This document shows, piece after piece, positions 1 to 26,537 of a stretch of 32,000 nt of DNA. The DNA lies in contig NZ_OMOH01000014.1 of NCBI RefSeq assembly GCF_900289195.1, positions 1-32,000 on the forward strand, written 5' to 3'. Source of the DNA: Propionibacterium ruminifibrarum. GTDB lineage: Bacteria; Actinomycetota; Actinomycetes; Propionibacteriales; Propionibacteriaceae. Every line of letters begins with the position of its first letter. The first letter of the stretch is position 1. Both the position numbers and the translations under genes were made by a program. The notes under the pieces are model-generated. The model saw only the letters and a list, made by a program, of their open reading frames with translations. It was not told the origin of the DNA and did no database searches.

Positions 1-1
1 G

Positions 2-286
2 ATCAGGGCCCTGGCCGACGGCGGCGAGATCACGGGCTGGCCTGCCGGCCGGTATGCCGAGGAACTCGCAGCGGCCGCCGGGACATGGCATGCCCGGGCA
101 TACCGGGACGGCCGACCCGGGGCGCTGTTCGGGGCAGTGAAAATGACCCGCCAGCCCCCCGAGATGAGATTCGTGTCCTACCACGACGCCCCACCCAACT
201 ACCTGGCCAGCGACTGGGAGGACGACATGTACTCAGGCGACGAAGATGTGCTGAGAACCGAACTAACCCGAATCTTCAAAGGTTGA
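2..286 (+). CDS. 3' end of a hypothetical protein, 5'-truncated by the window edge; possibly the immunity protein of a toxin module lying upstream of the window
   Basis: Frame 2 is open from the window edge to TGA at 284-286 (...RFVSYHDAPPNYLASDWEDDMYSGDEDVLRTELTRIFKG*). Third positions are GC-rich. It is absent from the ORF track because it has no start codon inside the window. Its C-terminal stretch loosely resembles aa ~80-140 of the 1653-2621 protein (PG.GA ... P.[YW]LAS). Confidence 0.45.
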   Translation: MRALADGGEITGWPAGRYAEELAAAAGTWHARAYRDGRPGALFGAVKMTRQPPEMRFVSYHDAPPNYLASDWEDDMYSGDEDVLRTELTRIFKG

Positions 287-330
287 AACCCAGACCCAGC
301 CTTGGGCTCAGTTGTCTTCCCTGATCTCCT

Positions 331-636
331 GTGGGACAGGAAGCGAGGTCACGGGTAAAGGATGTGCTCTCCCACCACGAGGCCCTGCACGGCCCCGACC
401 GGGTCATCGGCGGCAACCCCGACAACTTCACTGGCTTCGGCACCGAAACCGTCCCCGGCAACACCGCCAACTCAGAAATGGGCCGACACTGGTCAAATTC
501 CGATACCGTACGAAGCTATAATCGCCGCATGGAGGACGCAGTTTCTGATATTCCGGAAGAGTTGCGCGGTGATGTTCGGGTGAATACGGAGTTTCTGGTG
601 AATGGTAAGACGACTAATTTCATTGGCCTGCCGTGA
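331..636 (+). CDS. Orphan polymorphic-toxin C-terminal domain, Ntox15 (PF15604)/Tde-DNase-like with an HxxD motif; no delivery or N-terminal region, probably not independently translated
   Basis: The translation ...KDVLSHHEALHGPDRVIGGNPDNFTGFG...NTANSEMGRHW...DIPEELRGDVRVNTEF contains H-G-P-D (nt 388-399) followed by GG and an N.S.G..W segment. As I recall, this is the signature of the Ntox15/toxin_43 family. The frame opens only after an in-frame TGA at 322-324. The nominal start is GTG at 331 with no purine-rich SD upstream (gttgtcttccctgatctcct). It is followed 16 nt later by small putative immunity genes. Confidence 0.55.
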   Translation: MGQEARSRVKDVLSHHEALHGPDRVIGGNPDNFTGFGTETVPGNTANSEMGRHWSNSDTVRSYNRRMEDAVSDIPEELRGDVRVNTEFLVNGKTTNFIGLP

Positions 637-652
637 TGAAGGAAGAAATGAG

Positions 653-1122
653 ATGGCTGGTAAACGGGTGCGCGAGTCGTGGGAGAAGTACGGTCGGCGG
701 GGTCGAGAGGTTGAGGCATTCGTTGGGCTGATGGATTCAATGTCTCATGATCAATGGGTTACTGTTGGCGAGACTGAGAAGAATAACGTTTTTGATGAAT
801 ACATGGGTGCTCTTCAGGAATGCAAGAAGATAAGTATTTCCGCTACTGTTGTAAAGGCGTTGTCTTCTTTGGGTGATCGTTACCGGCCCCAGTATGATGA
901 TGAGGCTGTAGGTCGGTATACGCGTGGGGGGTCCGTGATGCGAAGTCCATTGCGCCGTATATCGTGGGTATTGCCGACCGGCTGCCTGCGTGGGCTGTTG
1001 AGGTGATTCTGCGTCCGTTCGTGAAGGCTGGTGTGGACCTGTCCCCGGTGTTGCCTGAGGGCATGGACATAAGCCGTCCGCTGCCGCACGTCGGTGATGA
1101 TGACTCGCCGGTTGATGAGTGA
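653..1122 (+). pseudogene. Frameshifted paralog of the 1122-1568 gene (putative immunity protein, unrecognised family)
   Basis: ATG at 653 follows a GGAAG SD. The protein aligns colinearly with the next gene (MAGKRVRESWEKYGRRGREVEAFVGLMDSMSHDQW vs MVGKRVREPWEKYGPRGCEVVAFVGLMDSMSHDQW) up to ...GRYTRGG. The homologous reading then continues in the -1 frame (VRDAKSIAPYIVGIADRLPAWAVEVILRPFVKAGVDLSPVLPEGMDISRPLP...) to TGA at 1120-1122. The copy-to-copy offset is 469 nt before and 470 nt after the G6 run at 926-931, which means a net 1-nt deletion in copy 1. Confidence 0.6.
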
Positions 1123-1568
1123 TGGTCGGTAAACGAGTGCGTGAACCGTGGGAGAAGTATGGTCCGCGGGGTTGTGAGGTCGTAGCGTTTGTCGGCTTGA
1201 TGGATTCCATGTCCCACGACCAGTGGGTCGTGGTCGGCGAGACAAAGGATGATCTTGATTTCGATGAGTATGCTTGGGCTCTTGAGCAGTGTCTGGAAAC
1301 AGGCATTTCTGCTACCACTGAAAGAATGTTGGTTGCACTGGGAGATTGTTACCAGCCCCAGTATGACGATGAGTCTGTTGGCCGGTACACTCGTGAAGGG
1401 GTCTGTTATGCGAAGTCCATTGCCCCATATATCGTGGGTATTGCTGACCGGTTGCCGGTGTGGGCGGTTGAGGTTCTCTTGCGTCCGTTCGTGAAGGCTG
1501 GTGTGGACTTGTCGTCGGTGTTGCCCGAGGGTATGGACATAAGCAGGCCGTTGCCGGATGAGGCGTAG
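1122..1568 (+). CDS. Hypothetical 148-aa protein, intact copy of the tandem pair; putative toxin-immunity protein of an unrecognised family
   Basis: ATG at 1122 overlaps the TGA of the restored upstream copy (TGATG), suggesting translational coupling. The frame is intact to TAG at 1566-1568. Its position directly downstream of a toxin tip is the only functional clue. I recognise no known motif. Confidence 0.6.
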   Translation: MVGKRVREPWEKYGPRGCEVVAFVGLMDSMSHDQWVVVGETKDDLDFDEYAWALEQCLETGISATTERMLVALGDCYQPQYDDESVGRYTREGVCYAKSIAPYIVGIADRLPVWAVEVLLRPFVKAGVDLSSVLPEGMDISRPLPDEA

Positions 1569-1652
1569 GCGCGGGTACTGGTCGTCAATGATGAGGATTG
1601 TCAAAAGGGACGAGGAGTACTTGGCTTCGGGCCGGGAGAGAGGTGTATCGGA

Positions 1653-2621
1653 ATGACTGTGCCGGGTTTTGGTCCTGATGCCAAGGAAGAGAAGATCAAG
1701 GCCCTGTACCAGAGGTTGGTCGGGTGGATGCGGGAGAACCGAGCCGATTACTTGCAGGCCGTGGTGCAGGCCGTGGGCGAGCGGCACGGCGGCTGGATCC
1801 GTTCGTACCACGACAATCGGCCCTACGACAATGTGGCACCGGCCGAGCTGTACGATCAGATGATCGCGCTGCGCAGCGTGCTGGCCGAGCCCGGCAGTGG
1901 CGCGTTCACCTACGCCAAGTTCGTCGTGGAGGTGGGGACCGGTACCCGTATGACGATGCGGCAGGACAGCCGCGAGCCCCAGCTGGATCCCCCCTACACG
2001 GCGCAGGACTGCGCCCGTGAACTGGAACTGTTCCCCCGTGATGATGGGCGCACCCCAACCTGGCTGGCCAGCCACGGGCAGCGCCGCGACGAGGTGACCA
2101 GCGTGAGGAAGATCGACGACCAGGTGCTGGAGCACTACCGGCCCCTCGTGCCCGAGGCGATCGGGGACCTGTGGAGCCAGTACGGCGTGGCCTATTTCGA
2201 TGACGGCATGGTGCGGCTGGTCGACCCGGCCCACGCCGTCAACCGGCTCCAGCGCGTGGCCCCTGCCGGCGACGACATGGTGCCGGTCTTCACCACGGCC
2301 CTGGGCGATGTCGTCTACTGGCGGGCCGGCCGGTTCGTGTTCTACGACTACCGGCACAGGACCTCCGGCGAGCTGGAGTCCAATGCTTTGGTGGCCCTGT
2401 ACATGCTGCACAGCGAGGATTTCCGCAACGAGTTCATGGACGGCCAGACCTACCGGCAGGTCGCCTGCCGGTACGGCATCCTCGACGTCGATGACTGCTT
2501 CGCCTACGTACCGCTCCTGCGGCTGGGCGGGCCCGAGGACGTGAACCGGCTCGACCCGTGCGAGATGTGGACGCACCTGGACTTCATCGCCCAGGCAACC
2601 GGCACGCCCAAAGAACCCTGA
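1653..2621 (+). CDS. Composite immunity-type protein: unknown N-terminal domain (aa ~1-145) fused to a GAD-like + DUF1851 (Tdi1-like) module (aa ~150-316)
   Basis: ATG at 1653 follows a GAGAGAGG SD. YRPLVPEAIGDLWSQYGVAYFDDGMVRLVDPAHAV fits my recollection of the GAD-like domain (PF08887). VPVFTTALGDVVYW...YRQVACRYGILDVDDCFAYVPLLRLGGPEDVNRLDPCEMWTHLDFI fits my recollection of DUF1851 / Tdi1 C-terminal (PF08906). Confidence 0.7.
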   Translation: MTVPGFGPDAKEEKIKALYQRLVGWMRENRADYLQAVVQAVGERHGGWIRSYHDNRPYDNVAPAELYDQMIALRSVLAEPGSGAFTYAKFVVEVGTGTRMTMRQDSREPQLDPPYTAQDCARELELFPRDDGRTPTWLASHGQRRDEVTSVRKIDDQVLEHYRPLVPEAIGDLWSQYGVAYFDDGMVRLVDPAHAVNRLQRVAPAGDDMVPVFTTALGDVVYWRAGRFVFYDYRHRTSGELESNALVALYMLHSEDFRNEFMDGQTYRQVACRYGILDVDDCFAYVPLLRLGGPEDVNRLDPCEMWTHLDFIAQATGTPKEP

Positions 2622-2644: not shown

Positions 2645-4339
2645 TCACCGCGCCCACGGCCCCCGTCCGCCGAGCAGCGCCTTGCCCAGCGGCAGCAGCG
2701 AGAGCCCCATCAACGTCAGCCCCCACACCGGTTCGCTGCCGCGCAGCACGATGCCGCCGACGAGCATCCCGGCGAACACCACCGCGGCCACCGTCCGGTC
2801 CTGGCCCTGCTCGGCCCGGCGGATCTGCCTCACCGCGTCCGGGGTCTGCACGCTGAGCTGGCCCCGCTCGACCATCGTGAGCACCCGGTCGATGCGACGC
2901 GGCAGTCCGACGGCGAGGGAGGCCATCGACCTGGACTCCTCGAGCGCCACTCCCAGCTGCGAGCCGGGCGTGCCGGTCACGAGACTGCGGGCGTAGGGCT
3001 CCACCGAGTCCCACAGGTTGTACTCGGGGTACAGCTCCACGCACAGGCCGTTCATGAGCGAGGCCGCGCGGATGAGCAGCAGGAAGTTCTGCGGCAGCTG
3101 GAAGGGCATCGTGGCCATGAGATCGCGGAACTGCATGCCGAAGGCGACGAACTCCTTCGGGTCGACGGTGCGCATGTCCGCCAGGCTCATGCCGCCGAAA
3201 CGGTCGAAGAGCTGGCTCACCGCCCGCTCGATGAGCGCCAGATCGGCCGAGGGCAGCAGCATGTCGAGGTCCTGCATGCAGCCCAGCAGCCGGTGGCTGT
3301 CGCGCAGCCCCACCGCGACGACGACCTCCTTCAGCTCGTCACGCAGGTTGTCCGGCACCTGGCCCATCATCCCGAAGTCGACGAAGGTGAGCCGCCAGCT
3401 CCGTCCGGCCTCGGCGGCCTGTGCCCGGGGCAGGGGCGTGATGAACAGGTTGCCCGGGTGCGGGTCGGCGTGGAAGAAACCCAGGTTGAAGACCTGCTCG
3501 ATGTAGGCGTCGGCCACCGCGAAGGCCACCTCGCGCCGGTCGATGCCGGCCGCCTCGATCGCCTCGACGTCACTGATCTTGATCGCCGTCACGTCCGACA
3601 GGGTGAGCACCCGCGGCGAGGTGCGCTCCCACACGACGAGCGGGTAACCCACCTGCGGGGCGTCGGCGAAACTCTCGGCGAACCGCTCGGCGTTCCCCGC
3701 CTCGTTGAGGTAGTCGAGTTCCTCGGCCGTCGTGCGGGCGAACTCCTCGACGAGGGCGGGCATGTCCGCGCGCTCGGCGATCGGACGGTAGTGCGCGATC
3801 CAGCCGGCCGCCCGCCGCAGTGCCGCCAGGTCCACGTCGGTCACCTGCTCGATGCCGGGGCGCTGCACCTTCACGACCACGTCGCGGAAACCCACGTCGC
3901 GGGCCTCTGACCGCGTCAGCCGGGCCCGGTGGACCTGCCCCAGCGAGGCCGCCGCCAGCGGCTCGGGCTCGAAGTACTCGAAGGCCTCCGACAGGGGCAT
4001 GCCCAGCGCCGCCTCGGCCGCGGGGAGCACCTGCTCGTAGGGCACCGGCGGGGCCTCGTCCTGCAGCCCCGAGAGCTCGTCGGTGACGGTGGGCGGCAGC
4101 ACGTCCAGGCGGGTCGACATGAACTGGCCCACCTTGATCATGAGCCCGCCCAAGTCGGCGGCGAGATCGTGGAACCCCACCGCCGCCTTGCGCAGCCGTC
4201 GTTCCCGGCCCCGCTCGGACAGCCGGTGAAGGCCGAGGCGCGGCAGCACGGCGTCGAAGAACCACAGCTGCGCGATGAGCCGGGCGAAGAAGCCCAGGAT
4301 CCTCCGGTAGCGGGCTCGAAGATGTCTGCTGCCGCTCAT
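2645..4339 (-). CDS. ABC1/AarF/UbiB-family atypical protein kinase with C-terminal membrane segments
   Basis: 564 aa, GGAGG SD before ATG at 4339. The N-terminal ...LGGLMIKVGQFMSTRLDVLPPTVTDELSGLQDEAPP... and the ...FFHADPHPGNLF... motif are typical of the ABC1 family. Confidence 0.9.
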   Translation of the reverse strand: MSGSRHLRARYRRILGFFARLIAQLWFFDAVLPRLGLHRLSERGRERRLRKAAVGFHDLAADLGGLMIKVGQFMSTRLDVLPPTVTDELSGLQDEAPPVPYEQVLPAAEAALGMPLSEAFEYFEPEPLAAASLGQVHRARLTRSEARDVGFRDVVVKVQRPGIEQVTDVDLAALRRAAGWIAHYRPIAERADMPALVEEFARTTAEELDYLNEAGNAERFAESFADAPQVGYPLVVWERTSPRVLTLSDVTAIKISDVEAIEAAGIDRREVAFAVADAYIEQVFNLGFFHADPHPGNLFITPLPRAQAAEAGRSWRLTFVDFGMMGQVPDNLRDELKEVVVAVGLRDSHRLLGCMQDLDMLLPSADLALIERAVSQLFDRFGGMSLADMRTVDPKEFVAFGMQFRDLMATMPFQLPQNFLLLIRAASLMNGLCVELYPEYNLWDSVEPYARSLVTGTPGSQLGVALEESRSMASLAVGLPRRIDRVLTMVERGQLSVQTPDAVRQIRRAEQGQDRTVAAVVFAGMLVGGIVLRGSEPVWGLTLMGLSLLPLGKALLGGRGPWAR

Positions 4340-4970: not shown

Positions 4971-5090
4971 GATGGCTCCTCTCCTGGTCCGGCTCGGGGC
5001 CGGGTTACGGCATCAACGATACATCGGAATCTATCGCTGATCGAGAGGTGTGGGAACTCGGTGGTGCGACCATGGCCCCTGCCGGGCGCC

Positions 5091-5549
5091 TCACAGATCG
5101 AAGGCCGCTGCGGCTCGCTCCGCGACGTCCTGCGCCGAGTCGGAGGTGAGCAGATCCTGGACGAACTCCGTGTCCTGCAGGCTCTTCATCAATTTTTGGA
5201 GCACCCCCAGATGGTCGCTGGAACCCTGCAACGCCAGCATGATGACCAAGCGCACGGGAACCTCGTCCCCGTCACCTGCCATAGCGCCGAACCCGACCGG
5301 AGTGGCCAAGGTTGCGACCGAGATGGCGCTGGTGCGGACGTGCTCCGGATCGGTGTGGGGAATGGCTACCCCGCCGCTGATGGGCAGCCCGGTGGGGAAT
5401 CTACTCTCGCGTGTCAACAGTCCTTGGAGGAAGGTGCTGTGCACATGGCCTAGGTCTTCCAGGCGTGCGGCCATGATCGTGAGGAGTTCTTTTCTGTCGG
5501 CGACTGACAGGTGTACATGGACGAGTTCCGGGGAGATGAGGGCAGTCAC
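5091..5549 (-). CDS. PTS EIIA component (type 2, Gat/Mtl/Fru family)
   Basis: 152 aa, GTG start. ...RESRFPTGLPISGGVAIPHTDPEHV... carries the phosphorylatable His context of EIIA-2. Confidence 0.85.
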   Translation of the reverse strand: MTALISPELVHVHLSVADRKELLTIMAARLEDLGHVHSTFLQGLLTRESRFPTGLPISGGVAIPHTDPEHVRTSAISVATLATPVGFGAMAGDGDEVPVRLVIMLALQGSSDHLGVLQKLMKSLQDTEFVQDLLTSDSAQDVAERAAAAFDL

Positions 5550-5623
5550 GGTGCTGGATCTTTCGTCTGGATGTCATATTGGCCGGCTCATGGACCATCA
5601 TTCAGTCATGGGCTACCAGGTGT

Positions 5624-6874
5624 TCACCCGAAGATGTGGTGGATGGTCTCGATGATGATGTTCGGCAGGTTGTAGCCGAAGAAGGCGTCAGTGACCATGC
5701 CGTTGACCTCCACGCCCATCGTCGTCATCATGGCGGTCGCCTCGGGTGCGAAGATGTTGGCCAGCCACTCGACGAAGAACAGGAATATGGCGCTGGTGAT
5801 CAGGGTGCGGAACAGATTCCCCTTGCAGGCCAGTGCGATCATCGGGACCATGTAGACGATGACTGTCAGTACGCCGACCGGGAAATAAGTCATGTTGGGG
5901 ATGACGAAGGCGAACACGATTGACAACGGGATCATGAGAACGGTCGTCGTGATTGCTGTCGGATCACCGAGGGCAAGGGCGACGTCCATGCCGATGTTGA
6001 GTTCCCGGTCCTCACCGAGATGACGCTTCATGAAGGCCTGCGAACCCTCGCCGACAGTACTCAGACCCTCCATCATGACCGAGACCATGCGCGGCAGCAG
6101 GACGAGCGCGGCGGCGATGCCGATGCCCATGGCGAGCACGCCCTGCCAGCTCTGGCGGGTGAGCAGACCGAGGAAGACGCCGACGATGACACCGATGAAC
6201 GCCGGATCGCCGAAGAAACCGAGTTTCTCCCCGACCTTCTCCATCGACAGATCGATCTTGCGCAACCCGGGGATGCGGTCGATGAGCTTGTTGAAGACGA
6301 TGCCGAACGGCCAGGCGAACGAGATGAACGACAGGGTTGAGCAGGTCGTCCCCTCCAAGCCGTAGTACTCCTGCCAGTACGGGGCGATGACCTGGGCGAG
6401 CACCAGTGTGATGATGGCGAGGACCAGTACGATCCCCAGCCCGATCCACAGGTTTCCGGTCAGGGCGTAGGCCATGCTGCCCGGGATGAGGAAGTGGATG
6501 TAGTTCCAGATGTCGACGTTGAGCACATTGGTCCACTTCAGGGCGATCATGATGATGTTGATGACCACGATGATGAGAACGGCTGGCGCCGCGAAGGGGG
6601 CGGCCCACGAGGCCGCGCCGACCGCGGCCCAGCCGACGTCGACGGTGGTGAACCCGCCGCCCTGCAGACCGCGGTAGTACTCGATGGCCGGCTCAACGGT
6701 GGCCATGAGGGCATTGATGACCATGACCAGGCCGGAGAAACCGATGCCGATCATGAGGCCGGCGCGGATCGATTTCCCGATGCCCATGCGGAAGATGAGG
6801 CACAGAATGGTCATGACGATCGGGAGCATCACTGCTGCGCCGAGGTTCATGATGCCCTGAACGACGCTGAGCAT
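5624..6874 (-). CDS. PTS EIIC permease, galactitol (GatC) family
   Basis: 416 aa polytopic membrane protein. The N-terminus MLSVVQGIMNLGAAVMLPIVMTILCLIF... is typical of GatC-type EIIC. AGGAG SD. Confidence 0.9.
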   Translation of the reverse strand: MLSVVQGIMNLGAAVMLPIVMTILCLIFRMGIGKSIRAGLMIGIGFSGLVMVINALMATVEPAIEYYRGLQGGGFTTVDVGWAAVGAASWAAPFAAPAVLIIVVINIIMIALKWTNVLNVDIWNYIHFLIPGSMAYALTGNLWIGLGIVLVLAIITLVLAQVIAPYWQEYYGLEGTTCSTLSFISFAWPFGIVFNKLIDRIPGLRKIDLSMEKVGEKLGFFGDPAFIGVIVGVFLGLLTRQSWQGVLAMGIGIAAALVLLPRMVSVMMEGLSTVGEGSQAFMKRHLGEDRELNIGMDVALALGDPTAITTTVLMIPLSIVFAFVIPNMTYFPVGVLTVIVYMVPMIALACKGNLFRTLITSAIFLFFVEWLANIFAPEATAMMTTMGVEVNGMVTDAFFGYNLPNIIIETIHHIFG

Positions 6875-6917
6875 GGTTGTTCTCCTTCGGTGTGATCAGA
6901 ATTCGTGAGTGGCTGGT

Positions 6918-7217
6918 TCAGGCGTCGAGGACGGCCCGGCAGGTGTCCACGACCTGCTGGGCGACCTTGTCCTCGTTGATCCCGGAGATGAGGCCGAAGA
7001 CCTGCACGACGGGCTTGTCGATCGTGCCGGGGTACTTCGTCGTCACCATGACGATGTCGACGCTGTTCGCCAGGGACTGGATCTGCGAGACGGTTCCCTT
7101 GGTGATCTTGGCGGGAATGTTCGCCTCGGCGAGGATCTTCTTCACCTTCTCCTGGGCGACGGTGCTCGTGGCGATGCCGCTGCCGCAGGCGATGAGGATC
7201 TTGACTTCCTTGTTCAT
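6918..7217 (-). CDS. PTS EIIB component (GatB-like)
   Basis: 99 aa. KILIACGSGIATSTV contains the active-site Cys motif. GAGGAG SD. Confidence 0.9.
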   Translation of the reverse strand: MNKEVKILIACGSGIATSTVAQEKVKKILAEANIPAKITKGTVSQIQSLANSVDIVMVTTKYPGTIDKPVVQVFGLISGINEDKVAQQVVDTCRAVLDA

Positions 7218-7221
7218 TGCT

Positions 7222-8280
7222 TCACTTCTCCTCGGGGTTGGGTTTCAGAACGACCTTGAGCGCCTCTCCGGTGCGGGTCAGGTCGATTGCCTCGTTGATG
7301 TGGTTCAGGGGCAGGACGTGGGTGATGATCGCCTCGGCCGGGAACGCCGGGTCGATGGCGAGTTCGAAGGCGCGCTGCACCTGCATGCTGTTCGCGCCGT
7401 AGTGGCCGTAGATCCACAGGCTGTTGTAGTGCACGGTGTTCGAGTCGATCTCGGTCAGCGCCCCCTTGGGGACGCCGCCGAAGAAGACGACGGTGCCGCA
7501 CGGCCGGGTCATCGCCAGCGCCTGCTGCTGGCCGGCCGTCGTCGGGTTGGCCGAGATCGCCTTGTCGACGCCCAGCCCGCCGGTGAGCCGCCTGACCTCC
7601 TCGACGGGCTCGACCGTGCTCGAGTTGATGCGGTGGTCGATGTCGAAGGCCCCGGACTTGTCCAGGCGGTCCTGGGTCACGTCGATGAGGATGACCTTCG
7701 AGGCCCCGCGCATCCTCGACAGCACCGCCAGGAAGACGCCGATCGGACCGGCGCCGAGGATCGCCACGGTGTCCCCGAGCCTCACGTCGATGTTCTCGAC
7801 GCACGCGTAGGTGCTCGACAGGGGCTCGGCCAGGCTCGCCCGCACGGGGTCGACGCCGGCGGGCAGGGTGAAGGTTGCGCCGCGCTCCACCCGTTTGGCC
7901 GTGTAGGCGATGTACTGGGCGAAACCGCCCGGGCGGCTGGTGTAGGACTCGACGTCGGTGCAGTGCTCGTGGTGGCCGGCCCGGCAGTAGTCGCACTTCA
8001 GGCAGTGGGCCTCGGGGTAGACGTAGAGCCGCTGGCCCGGCTCGTAGGCGGTGACCCCGGGCGACACCTCGGCCACCGTGCCCACCACCTCGTGCCCGTA
8101 GATGTGGGGGTAGGCGCCCCTGCGGGAATCGGTCGTCAGGTTCCTGATGTCTGACCCGCACAGGCCGACGGCGTCAACCCGGAGGACGAACCCGCCGTCG
8201 GGGCACTGCGGCCTCGGCACCTGCTCGAACCTGATGTCGCCGGGACCGTGCATGACGGCCGCGTCCATCACGTCTGTCAT
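7222..8280 (-). CDS. Zn-dependent medium-chain alcohol/polyol(-phosphate) dehydrogenase
   Basis: Start chosen at ATG 8280 (MTDVMDAAVMHGPGDIRFEQVP...) with a GAGGAG SD. The ORF-track start at 8427 adds an Arg-rich, non-coding-looking extension. GLCGSDI, the GHE motif (YGHEVVG) and a Cys cluster (CLKCDYC) are MDR-family hallmarks. Confidence 0.9.
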   Translation of the reverse strand: MTDVMDAAVMHGPGDIRFEQVPRPQCPDGGFVLRVDAVGLCGSDIRNLTTDSRRGAYPHIYGHEVVGTVAEVSPGVTAYEPGQRLYVYPEAHCLKCDYCRAGHHEHCTDVESYTSRPGGFAQYIAYTAKRVERGATFTLPAGVDPVRASLAEPLSSTYACVENIDVRLGDTVAILGAGPIGVFLAVLSRMRGASKVILIDVTQDRLDKSGAFDIDHRINSSTVEPVEEVRRLTGGLGVDKAISANPTTAGQQQALAMTRPCGTVVFFGGVPKGALTEIDSNTVHYNSLWIYGHYGANSMQVQRAFELAIDPAFPAEAIITHVLPLNHINEAIDLTRTGEALKVVLKPNPEEK

Positions 8281-26439: not shown

Positions 26440-26459
26440 GAGCCACCACACCTTTCCAC

Positions 26460-26537
26460 GGGCAGGAACGTGCCCGACGATCCGTAGTAGAGCAGGACGA
26501 AGGACGTCTTCGTCCGCACCCGTATTCTCGCATACGG
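26460..26537 (-). promoter_or_regulatory. Three consecutive stem-loops in the msiK 5' leader (candidate msiK RNA motif)
   Basis: GGGCA/TGCCC (26460-26475), a perfect 8-bp GGACGAAG/CTTCGTCC (26495-26515) and CCGTAT/ATACGG (26520-26537), all within 100 nt upstream of the msiK start on its strand. Confidence 0.35.

Follow-up and report, generated by a model that had tools for sequence, protein, structure and literature searches.

The first 2,621 nucleotides (nt) of a 32,000-nt stretch of Propionibacterium ruminifibrarum DNA (RefSeq assembly GCF_900289195.1, contig NZ_OMOH01000014.1, positions 1 to 32,000; hereafter the window) very probably, at roughly 80%, form the distal end of a polymorphic-toxin locus that lies on the chromosome and is linked to ESX/type VII secretion, with a remnant of a toxin tip followed by immunity-type genes. 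In order along the plus strand, this region carries the 3' end of an Imm33-type gene (2-286), an orphan, 5'-truncated Ntox15/Tde DNase tip (331-636), two tandem copies of a protein family that we call X (653-1122 and 1122-1568), and a composite Tdi-like protein (1653-2621), beyond which lies a convergent kinase gene. An earlier note on this DNA had described the region as an orphan tip with an array of immunity-type genes, and the open reading frame (ORF) table together with the sequence places every feature that it listed where the note had put it. Secretion, DNase activity, and immunity are predicted functions of the locus products. The type of locus is known, whereas the X family, the Tde-X-Tdi gene order, and the composite Tdi appear to be new.

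Toxin tip remnant and cassette junction

Pfam analysis of the 101-aa ORF at 331-636 (plus strand, GTG start) revealed similarity to Ntox15 (PF15604) with an E-value of 7.5e-6 and a score of 26.5 bits, above the gathering score of 22.5, which bears out the Tde-type tip predicted in the earlier note. The toxin C-terminal domain proposed there is nevertheless only partly present: the match spans profile positions 78-138 of 153, and for this reason the ORF is classed as a remnant of the Ntox15 family and not as a functional member. An intact homologue covers positions 7-143. When the 1145-aa toxin of the related locus L001 (described below) was used as a tblastn query, the only match in the 32 kb lay at 340-633, corresponding to toxin residues 1048-1145 (of 1145) with 89% identity. 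The tip protein is 87-93% identical to the C-termini of the intact toxins in L001 and in L011, a short sequencing-run contig.

Both HGPD (388-399) and PDRVIGG (394-414) are kept in the tip; via the L001 homologue, they line up with the active-site motif in the solved structure of Bacteroidales Tde1 (8fzz_A). This motif, PD(X)3GG, is invariant in Tde and is held by the alpha1-alpha2 surface of the domain (PMC13556189). The window domain is incomplete, lacking its N-terminal half, including alpha1-alpha2. No Shine-Dalgarno sequence was found upstream of GTG 331, and the promoter scan showed nothing on the plus strand for the tip. Because half of the domain, a ribosome-binding site, and a promoter-like site are all missing, the tip remnant is most likely inert.

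A six-way DNA alignment, the L001 toxin as a tblastn query, and a profile of differences from L011 placed the cassette junction at 287-345, most narrowly at ~321-345. On its left side, window 1-320 showed 88% DNA identity to the 3' end of a gene for a 271-aa protein of P. australiense (L009 4334-5149), which lies downstream of a GH-E nuclease toxin and an ankyrin-repeat gene and whose product contains an Imm33 domain (PF09951; residues 21-103, E=1.8e-17). The window ORF at 2-286 (plus strand) is open at the left edge, ends with the stop codon TGA at 284-286, and comprises the last 94 codons, corresponding to approximately residues 178-271 of the L009 homologue, i.e., outside the Imm33 domain. 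The fragment itself had no Pfam or NCBIfam match, and a metagenome scan with this ORF gave no match. Judged by its homology, the left-edge gene is a predicted Imm33-type gene and part of a neighbouring toxin cassette. The match continues through 287 to approximately 320, in the DNA 3' of the Imm33-type gene; approximately 321-340 matches neither partner, and toxin homology begins at approximately 340-358. The earlier note had asked whether the 3' end of a full-length toxin shares a homology block with 287-400. Such a block exists, with the toxins of relatives, but it starts at about 340, not at 287.

Organization of related loci

A scan of genome collections yielded matches in P. acidifaciens, P. 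australiense, and Actinomyces oris. L001, a Propionibacteriaceae contig from a metagenome-assembled genome, carries a 76%-identical X homologue. On its toxin side, a minus-strand EccD/YukD gene is followed by a weak WXG100-like gene, an ESAT6-like gene, DUF6177 and DUF6507 genes, and the gene for the 1145-aa toxin, which has Ntox15 at residues 987-1119. Downstream are X (156 aa), X (157 aa), a third X disrupted by TAG, X (149 aa), and a 322-aa Tdi-like gene, and the right flank, like that of the window, is made up of ABC1 and PadR genes in convergent orientation. The same plan was found in P. acidifaciens (L007) with two X copies and in P. australiense (L008) with three. The syntenic toxin has 1144-1145 aa in relatives; in P. 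acidifaciens DSM 21887, the full-length toxin is split by a frameshift (L007 ~7897-7904). ESX machinery and WXG100-type genes adjoining the toxin were seen in relatives only, outside the window, and the WXG100-like gene (E=3.5e-4) scored below the Pfam cut-off. Pfam detected no LXG or WXG100 domain at the toxin N-terminus in L001 or L009, where a WAG motif was recognized by eye only.

The L001 (Ntox15) and L009 (GH-E) toxins showed 69% identity over a 591-column alignment of their first ~560 aa, strongest in the first ~440 aa, and their tips are unrelated. Toxins of the relatives are composed of this conserved N-terminal region of ~440 aa, then a low-complexity linker, and then an interchangeable tip. 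A protein search with the conserved N-terminus returned at least two proteins. L009 (675-6569; P. australiense NZ_RCIV01000036.1) is a second toxin locus, in which the conserved toxin N-terminus carries the GH-E nuclease tip and is followed by the ankyrin-repeat gene, the Imm33-domain gene, a 143-aa ORF, and a Tdi-like gene, the frame of which breaks off at ~6222, adjoining a minus-strand ORF (6219-6569).

Metagenome contigs L020-L027 served as the sample for the comparison of orphan modules. L020 contains a 1144-aa toxin, X, an orphan ORF with a complete Ntox15 (180 aa), two further X genes, a frameshifted orphan tip, a split X, the Tdi-like gene, and ABC1. One or two extra orphan modules, each an Ntox15 tip plus X, are present in L020-L023 (one in L021), one of them decayed and followed by a decayed X, and there are none in L024 and L025. 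The arrangements in L020, L021, L024, and L025 show that what repeats is the tip plus X and that a single Tdi-like gene closes the locus. The locus occupies a fixed chromosomal site beside ABC1 and holds 2-4 X copies, 0-2 orphan tips, and pseudogenes. The earlier note had proposed comparing cassette presence and absence across strains, and cassette content does differ at this one site. None of the outcomes that it named as refuting its reading was seen. The orphan toxin/immunity architecture that it proposed finds support, since the syntenic loci of relatives hold ESX genes, an Ntox15-ending toxin, X copies, optional orphan tips, and a Tdi-like gene.

Replacement of the tip by an incoming cassette would be the simplest history of the window arrangement. 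A foreign cassette ending in the Imm33-type gene may have recombined into the locus and replaced the toxin tip, leaving the last ~98 codons of the old Ntox15 tip and its downstream genes as an orphan. The survivors downstream would be the frameshifted X copy 1, the intact X copy 2, and the composite Tdi-like protein, and the intact copies were probably kept as protection from neighbours still secreting the toxin. This putative history agrees with the general model in which recombination replaces the tips at polymorphic toxin loci (PMC3482391).

The X family

X copy 2 (1122-1568, plus strand) is intact and encodes 148 aa from ATG 1122, or 149 aa from GTG 1119, with 100% identity over 119 aa to an NCBI protein of P. 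ruminifibrarum (P0001). Look-ups by exact protein sequence, made with five window products and with P0001, gave no match. A word-index search with copy 2 gave 27 matches, every named source being Propionibacterium or Propionibacteriaceae, and an exhaustive profile search of 1.84 billion representative proteins gave 11 matches at E<=0.001, two of them below E=1e-30, which added a handful of distant members. Neither copy had a Pfam, NCBIfam, or PHROG match. The AlphaFold2 model of copy 2 (predicted local distance difference test, pLDDT, 88.7; predicted template modelling score, pTM, 0.84) shows seven helices and an ordered C-terminal tail. A Foldseek comparison with the PDB gave no fold match (best E-value 2.2), and a profile search against PDB sequences gave no match. 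Given the few profile matches and the lack of a fold or sequence match in the PDB, X is a narrow, undescribed, all-helical family of ~150 aa.

Conservation within X peaks at P-x4-G-[VI]-D (PFVKAGVD, 1485-1508, with an equivalent site in copy 1), which the distant members also keep. Its loose likeness to the Tdi motif P(Phi)4GG and the Tde motif PD(X)3GG is too short to weigh and possibly a coincidence, and we set it aside. Among the distant relatives, P0034 has two X-like domains in one chain. P0037, a marginal relative (E=6e-4; L016-L019 ~2870-3590), is encoded in the early region of an integrase-bearing prophage and matches phrog_8332, a family whose function is unknown.

The earlier note had listed two tandem paralogous genes of ~150 aa. 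The tandem duplication (652-1556) is present, but the first paralogue (653-1122, plus strand) is frameshifted and appears as two ORFs, 602-1006 and 964-1122. The two copies share 71% nucleotide identity in their 5' part and 87% in their 3' part, and the start of copy 2 overlaps the stop of copy 1 (TGATG). The repeat finder gave a spacing of 469 nt, becoming 470 nt near position ~928; therefore, one base has been lost from copy 1. In the G-run at 926-931, the window has 6 G against 7 in L011, which shifts the frame. L011 shows ~99% DNA identity to window 365-1200, with ~9 substitutions plus the one G; its toxin frame is open upstream for at least 341 codons, and its X copy 1 is intact.

Alternatively, the frameshift could stem from a homopolymer error in sequencing or assembly, in which case both X genes would be intact in the strain; we consider this quite plausible, at somewhat less than even odds. 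Only one G is missing from the G-run, and with that G restored, the product is 100% identical to the intact homologue P0003/L011_c1, which starts 16 nt after the intact toxin, in DNA that differs by ~9 substitutions over ~830 nt. Genuine inactivation is favoured by the independent loss of X genes at comparable positions in relatives: an X copy in L001 (9499-9972) has an in-frame TAG replacing the conserved Q of the DQW motif, and the split X of L020 (8672-9135) lies behind a decayed orphan tip. In addition, loss of X copy 1 would be tolerable in the window because its cognate toxin is truncated.

The Tdi-like protein

The single 322-aa ORF at 1653-2621 (plus strand) confirmed the Tdi1-like GAD/DUF1851 protein predicted in the earlier note. 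Its core (2091-2621) contains both Pfam domains, GAD-like (PF08887; residues 147-224, 28.8 bits versus a cut-off of 25) and T6SS_Tdi1_C/DUF1851 (PF08906; residues 252-314, 43.8 bits versus 27.4). Over residues 153-314, the protein aligns to two solved Tdi proteins, 8fzz_B of Bacteroidales (E=1e-13) and 8g0k_B, and its PLLRLGG (residues 287-293; 2511-2531) is in register with PTLSMGG of the former and PALVAGG of the latter; the third position of the window motif is R, not a hydrophobic residue. Tdi proteins use the P(Phi)4GG motif to mimic and displace the active site of Tde (PMC13556189), and the window protein would neutralise Tde-type nucleases by this active-site mimicry. It is not adjacent to a tde gene, as two X genes intervene in the window and 2-6 genes in relatives. 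The match to NCBIfam TaeI (NF041834), at 31.9 bits below the equivalog cut-off of 450, is a distant relationship only. A search with the Tdi-like protein returned three clusters.

The extra N-terminal domain (residues 1-146; 1653-2090, plus strand) is outside all described families, with no Pfam match and none to PDB sequences in a profile search. Given 4 sequences, AlphaFold2 produced a model of all 322 residues that was too poor to use (pLDDT 39). Relatives of the domain were found as two standalone ORFs (184 and 174 aa) of Actinomyces oris, with 31-35% identity by alignment and 40% in a tblastn segment. Because these adjoin an Endonuclea_NS_2 toxin tip and two Imm5 genes, the domain looks like a second immunity-type domain fused to Tdi. 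A resemblance to EsaG/YezG (DUF600), which no test supported, serves as a lead only. The Actinomyces oris region (L010 447-5020; NZ_MSGO01000059.1), with its Endonuclea_NS_2 tip, both standalone homologues, and two Imm5 genes, itself looks like a poly-immunity array.

Role of X

X directly follows the tip at all 12 tips examined, overlapping it or starting within ~20 nt, and X is therefore the modular partner of the tip. These 12 include two tips beside distant X relatives. In L014, the distant X protein P0036 starts 1 nt after an Ntox15-like C-terminus, ...IPEELWGDIKLNVRFTVNGKVW, which resembles the end of the window tip, ...IPEELRGDVRVNTEFLVNGKTT. In L015, P0038 is flanked on one side by an Ntox15 domain (E=6.7e-20) and on the other by a canonical Tdi of 191 aa that carries PLLALGG. 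The adjacency to the tip, the diverged tandem paralogues, the X-X pairs, the pseudogenes behind decayed tips, and the orphan copies together suggest that X is a tip-linked immunity protein, a role that we regard as probable and that most likely would involve binding of the DNase.

Several observations weigh against this account of the locus. The role assigned to X comes from gene context, as the family has no family, PDB fold, or PDB sequence match, and the established immunity protein of Ntox15 is Tdi, which may make X dispensable for protection. Among the distant X relatives, one is an orphan in an unrelated neighbourhood, and a marginal one lies in a prophage early region. Tips with 97% identity adjoin X proteins with 82% identity, and 100%-identical X proteins adjoin tips with 86-87% identity. 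The full-length toxin and the ESX genes of the window's own genome are inferred from relatives only. As for allele specificity, tips and their adjacent X proteins co-vary (Mantel r=0.51, permutation p=0.002), but we rejected this result as evidence, since near-identical pairs drive the correlation and shuffled pairs contradict it. Because such shuffled combinations exist, strict allele-specific pairing of tip and X is unsupported.

A two-component form of immunity, which we advance tentatively, would assign high-affinity, allele-specific binding of the tip to the variable X proteins and active-site mimicry through P(Phi)4GG to the single terminal Tdi-like protein, with both needed or each protective independently. 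X might then be an undescribed immunity component for actinobacterial Ntox15/Tde nucleases that acts with Tdi, in a split, two-protein version of the two-interface mechanism of a single Tdi. The Tde-X-Tdi order is kept at ~40% toxin identity, each locus has one Tdi-like gene against one or more X per tip, and X varies mainly in its N-terminal and middle parts (71% versus 87% nucleotide identity between the window copies). In the mechanism published for Tdi, a variable polar interface is distinct from the conserved motif (PMC13556189), and an unrelated DNase provides a precedent for dual immunity (PMC13392607). However, the proposal draws on gene context; Tdi is no more conserved than the toxin between the window and L007 (69% versus 75-79% identity); and canonical Tdi neutralises Tde alone in other phyla (PMC13556189; PMC10470768).

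We consider it unlikely that X is instead a tip-specific helper, i.e., a chaperone, adaptor, or stabiliser that keeps Ntox15 export-competent for type VII secretion, with Tdi as the sole true immunity protein. Many secretion chaperones are helical bundles, as X is in its model. X always lies between tip and Tdi, even in the distant trio of L015, and the known neutralising motif is carried by Tdi (PMC13556189). However, 2-4 diverged tandem copies, tip-less X-X pairs, pseudogenised X copies, and X orphans are what immunity genes, not chaperones, typically show, and L014 has a tip and X with no neighbouring Tdi. The genes for known type VII targeting factors lie upstream of the toxin gene, and in this locus that position is filled by DUF6507 and DUF6177.

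The notion that these are ordinary conserved core genes with chance domain matches and that there is no toxin-immunity locus, for which the fixed chromosomal site beside ABC1 and PadR in several species might speak, can be dismissed, as the Pfam matches exceed curated cut-offs, the proteins are homologous to solved Tde and Tdi proteins, G+C is low, full-length toxins with swapped tips occur in relatives, and the cassette content of the site varies between strains, with variable copy number, orphan tips, and pseudogenes. A probable immunity role for X within a type VII-linked toxin locus is the reading that we retain.

Base composition and flanking region

The toxin tip and the two X copies have a G+C content of 55-58%, versus 68% for the whole window. 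A promoter and terminator scan of 1-2800 showed sites no commoner than in shuffled sequence. The convergent gene that the earlier note had marked at 2645 encodes an ABC1/UbiB-type kinase (2645-4339, minus strand; Pfam ABC1, E=2.6e-68), which forms the conserved right-hand flank of the variable locus and is present in L001-L005, L020-L022, L025, and L027.

Elsewhere in the window, a second G+C dip (~0.60) at 5000-7000 covers phosphotransferase system (PTS) EIIA and EIIC-GAT genes. The ADH, PfkB, and aldolase genes located between PadR and PTS EIIA in L001 are apparently absent from the window. An msiK RNA motif (RF01747) was found at 26455-26491 on the minus strand (Rfam, 45.6 bits versus a gathering score of 33); it was the sole RNA family match in the window, in which no tRNA genes were found.

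Discussion

The locus type is known, since the link between Ntox15 and type VII secretion, the McProf cassette, solved Tde/Tdi pairs, and arrays of orphan tips with immunity genes have all been described. Orphan cdiA-CT/cdiI and rhs-CT/rhsI arrays downstream of full-length contact-dependent inhibition (CDI) and Rhs toxins are the classic examples of such arrays. They likewise consist of 5'-truncated tips with an immunity gene, arranged in downstream arrays that vary between strains and are made by recombination (framework in PMC3482391). The locus examined here differs in its secretion system and toxin scaffold. In addition, the break in the window lies inside the catalytic domain and not in a conserved pre-toxin block, so homologous recombination could not simply join the tip back onto the gene upstream.

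Another classic case is the Staphylococcus aureus nuclease EsaD with its arrays of EsaG (DUF600) paralogues, including orphan copies in toxin-less strains. As in our locus, where immunity is the probable role of X, a type VII nuclease toxin is accompanied by tandem, diverged small immunity proteins, orphans included. The toxin fold differs (Endonuclea_NS_2 versus Ntox15), and X has no detectable DUF600 similarity.

A 2012 catalogue (PMC3482391) included actinobacterial Ntox15 and its association with type VII trafficking domains, and Tde/Tdi mechanisms have been solved for Bacteroidales and Bacillota (PMC10470768; PMC13556189). The Tde/Tdi pairs of Agrobacterium (Tde1-Tdi1, PMC4096383), Bacteroidales (PMC10470768; PDB 8fzz, 8g0k), and Bacillota (PMC13556189) belong to the same toxin family with HxxD / PD(X)3GG, and the immunity family with P(Phi)4GG is also the same, with significant homology to the solved pair. 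In contrast to these pairs, the context here is ESX/type VII in an actinobacterium, as seen in relatives, and not type VI secretion (T6SS); the Tdi has an extra N-terminal domain of ~146 aa; one to several X genes separate Tdi from the toxin; and the window toxin is a truncated remnant.

The mycobacterial prophage McProf carries a WXG100-Tde-Tdi cassette, gp96-98, with a toxin_43/Ntox15 C-terminus (PMC8191103). This cassette is likewise actinobacterial, with a WXG100-type polymorphic toxin that is a predicted type VII substrate and a GAD-like/DUF1851 immunity protein (PMC8191103). It is prophage-borne, its Tdi (216 aa) lies directly beside the toxin, and as described it has no X-type gene or orphan-tip array, whereas the locus described here is chromosomal, at a fixed site, and multi-cassette. 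In Pseudomonas aeruginosa, Tde5 has two unrelated immunity proteins, Tdi5a and Tdi5b, for which dual action has been demonstrated (PMC13392607). That system likewise combines one DNase toxin with two structurally different immunity-type genes. However, Tde5 is a beta-beta-alpha-metal DNase delivered by a T6SS and unrelated to Ntox15, and for our locus dual action is hypothesised.

The earlier note had known of no description of the whole combination. This holds only in part: Tde/Tdi linked to type VII secretion in Actinobacteria had been published (PMC3482391; PMC8191103), and what appears undescribed is the X family, the Tde-X-Tdi order, and the composite Tdi. Searching full texts for DUF6507 and for Propionibacterium type VII polymorphic toxins yielded no description of this locus.

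Tde/Tdi pairs are under structural study in Gram-negatives and Bacillota and are known in Actinobacteria from annotation only. Here, a third, uncharacterised family with a confident helical model and no known fold relative accompanies every Ntox15 tip examined. Should X have no immunity role, the region would simply be a well-documented case of a known locus type. Should it have one, X would represent a new way to neutralise a well-studied DNase fold and a possible natural case of two unrelated immunity proteins per toxin, and the Propionibacterium arrays, in which intact, orphaned, and decaying modules lie side by side, would offer a compact system in which to follow the displacement and loss of toxin cassettes.

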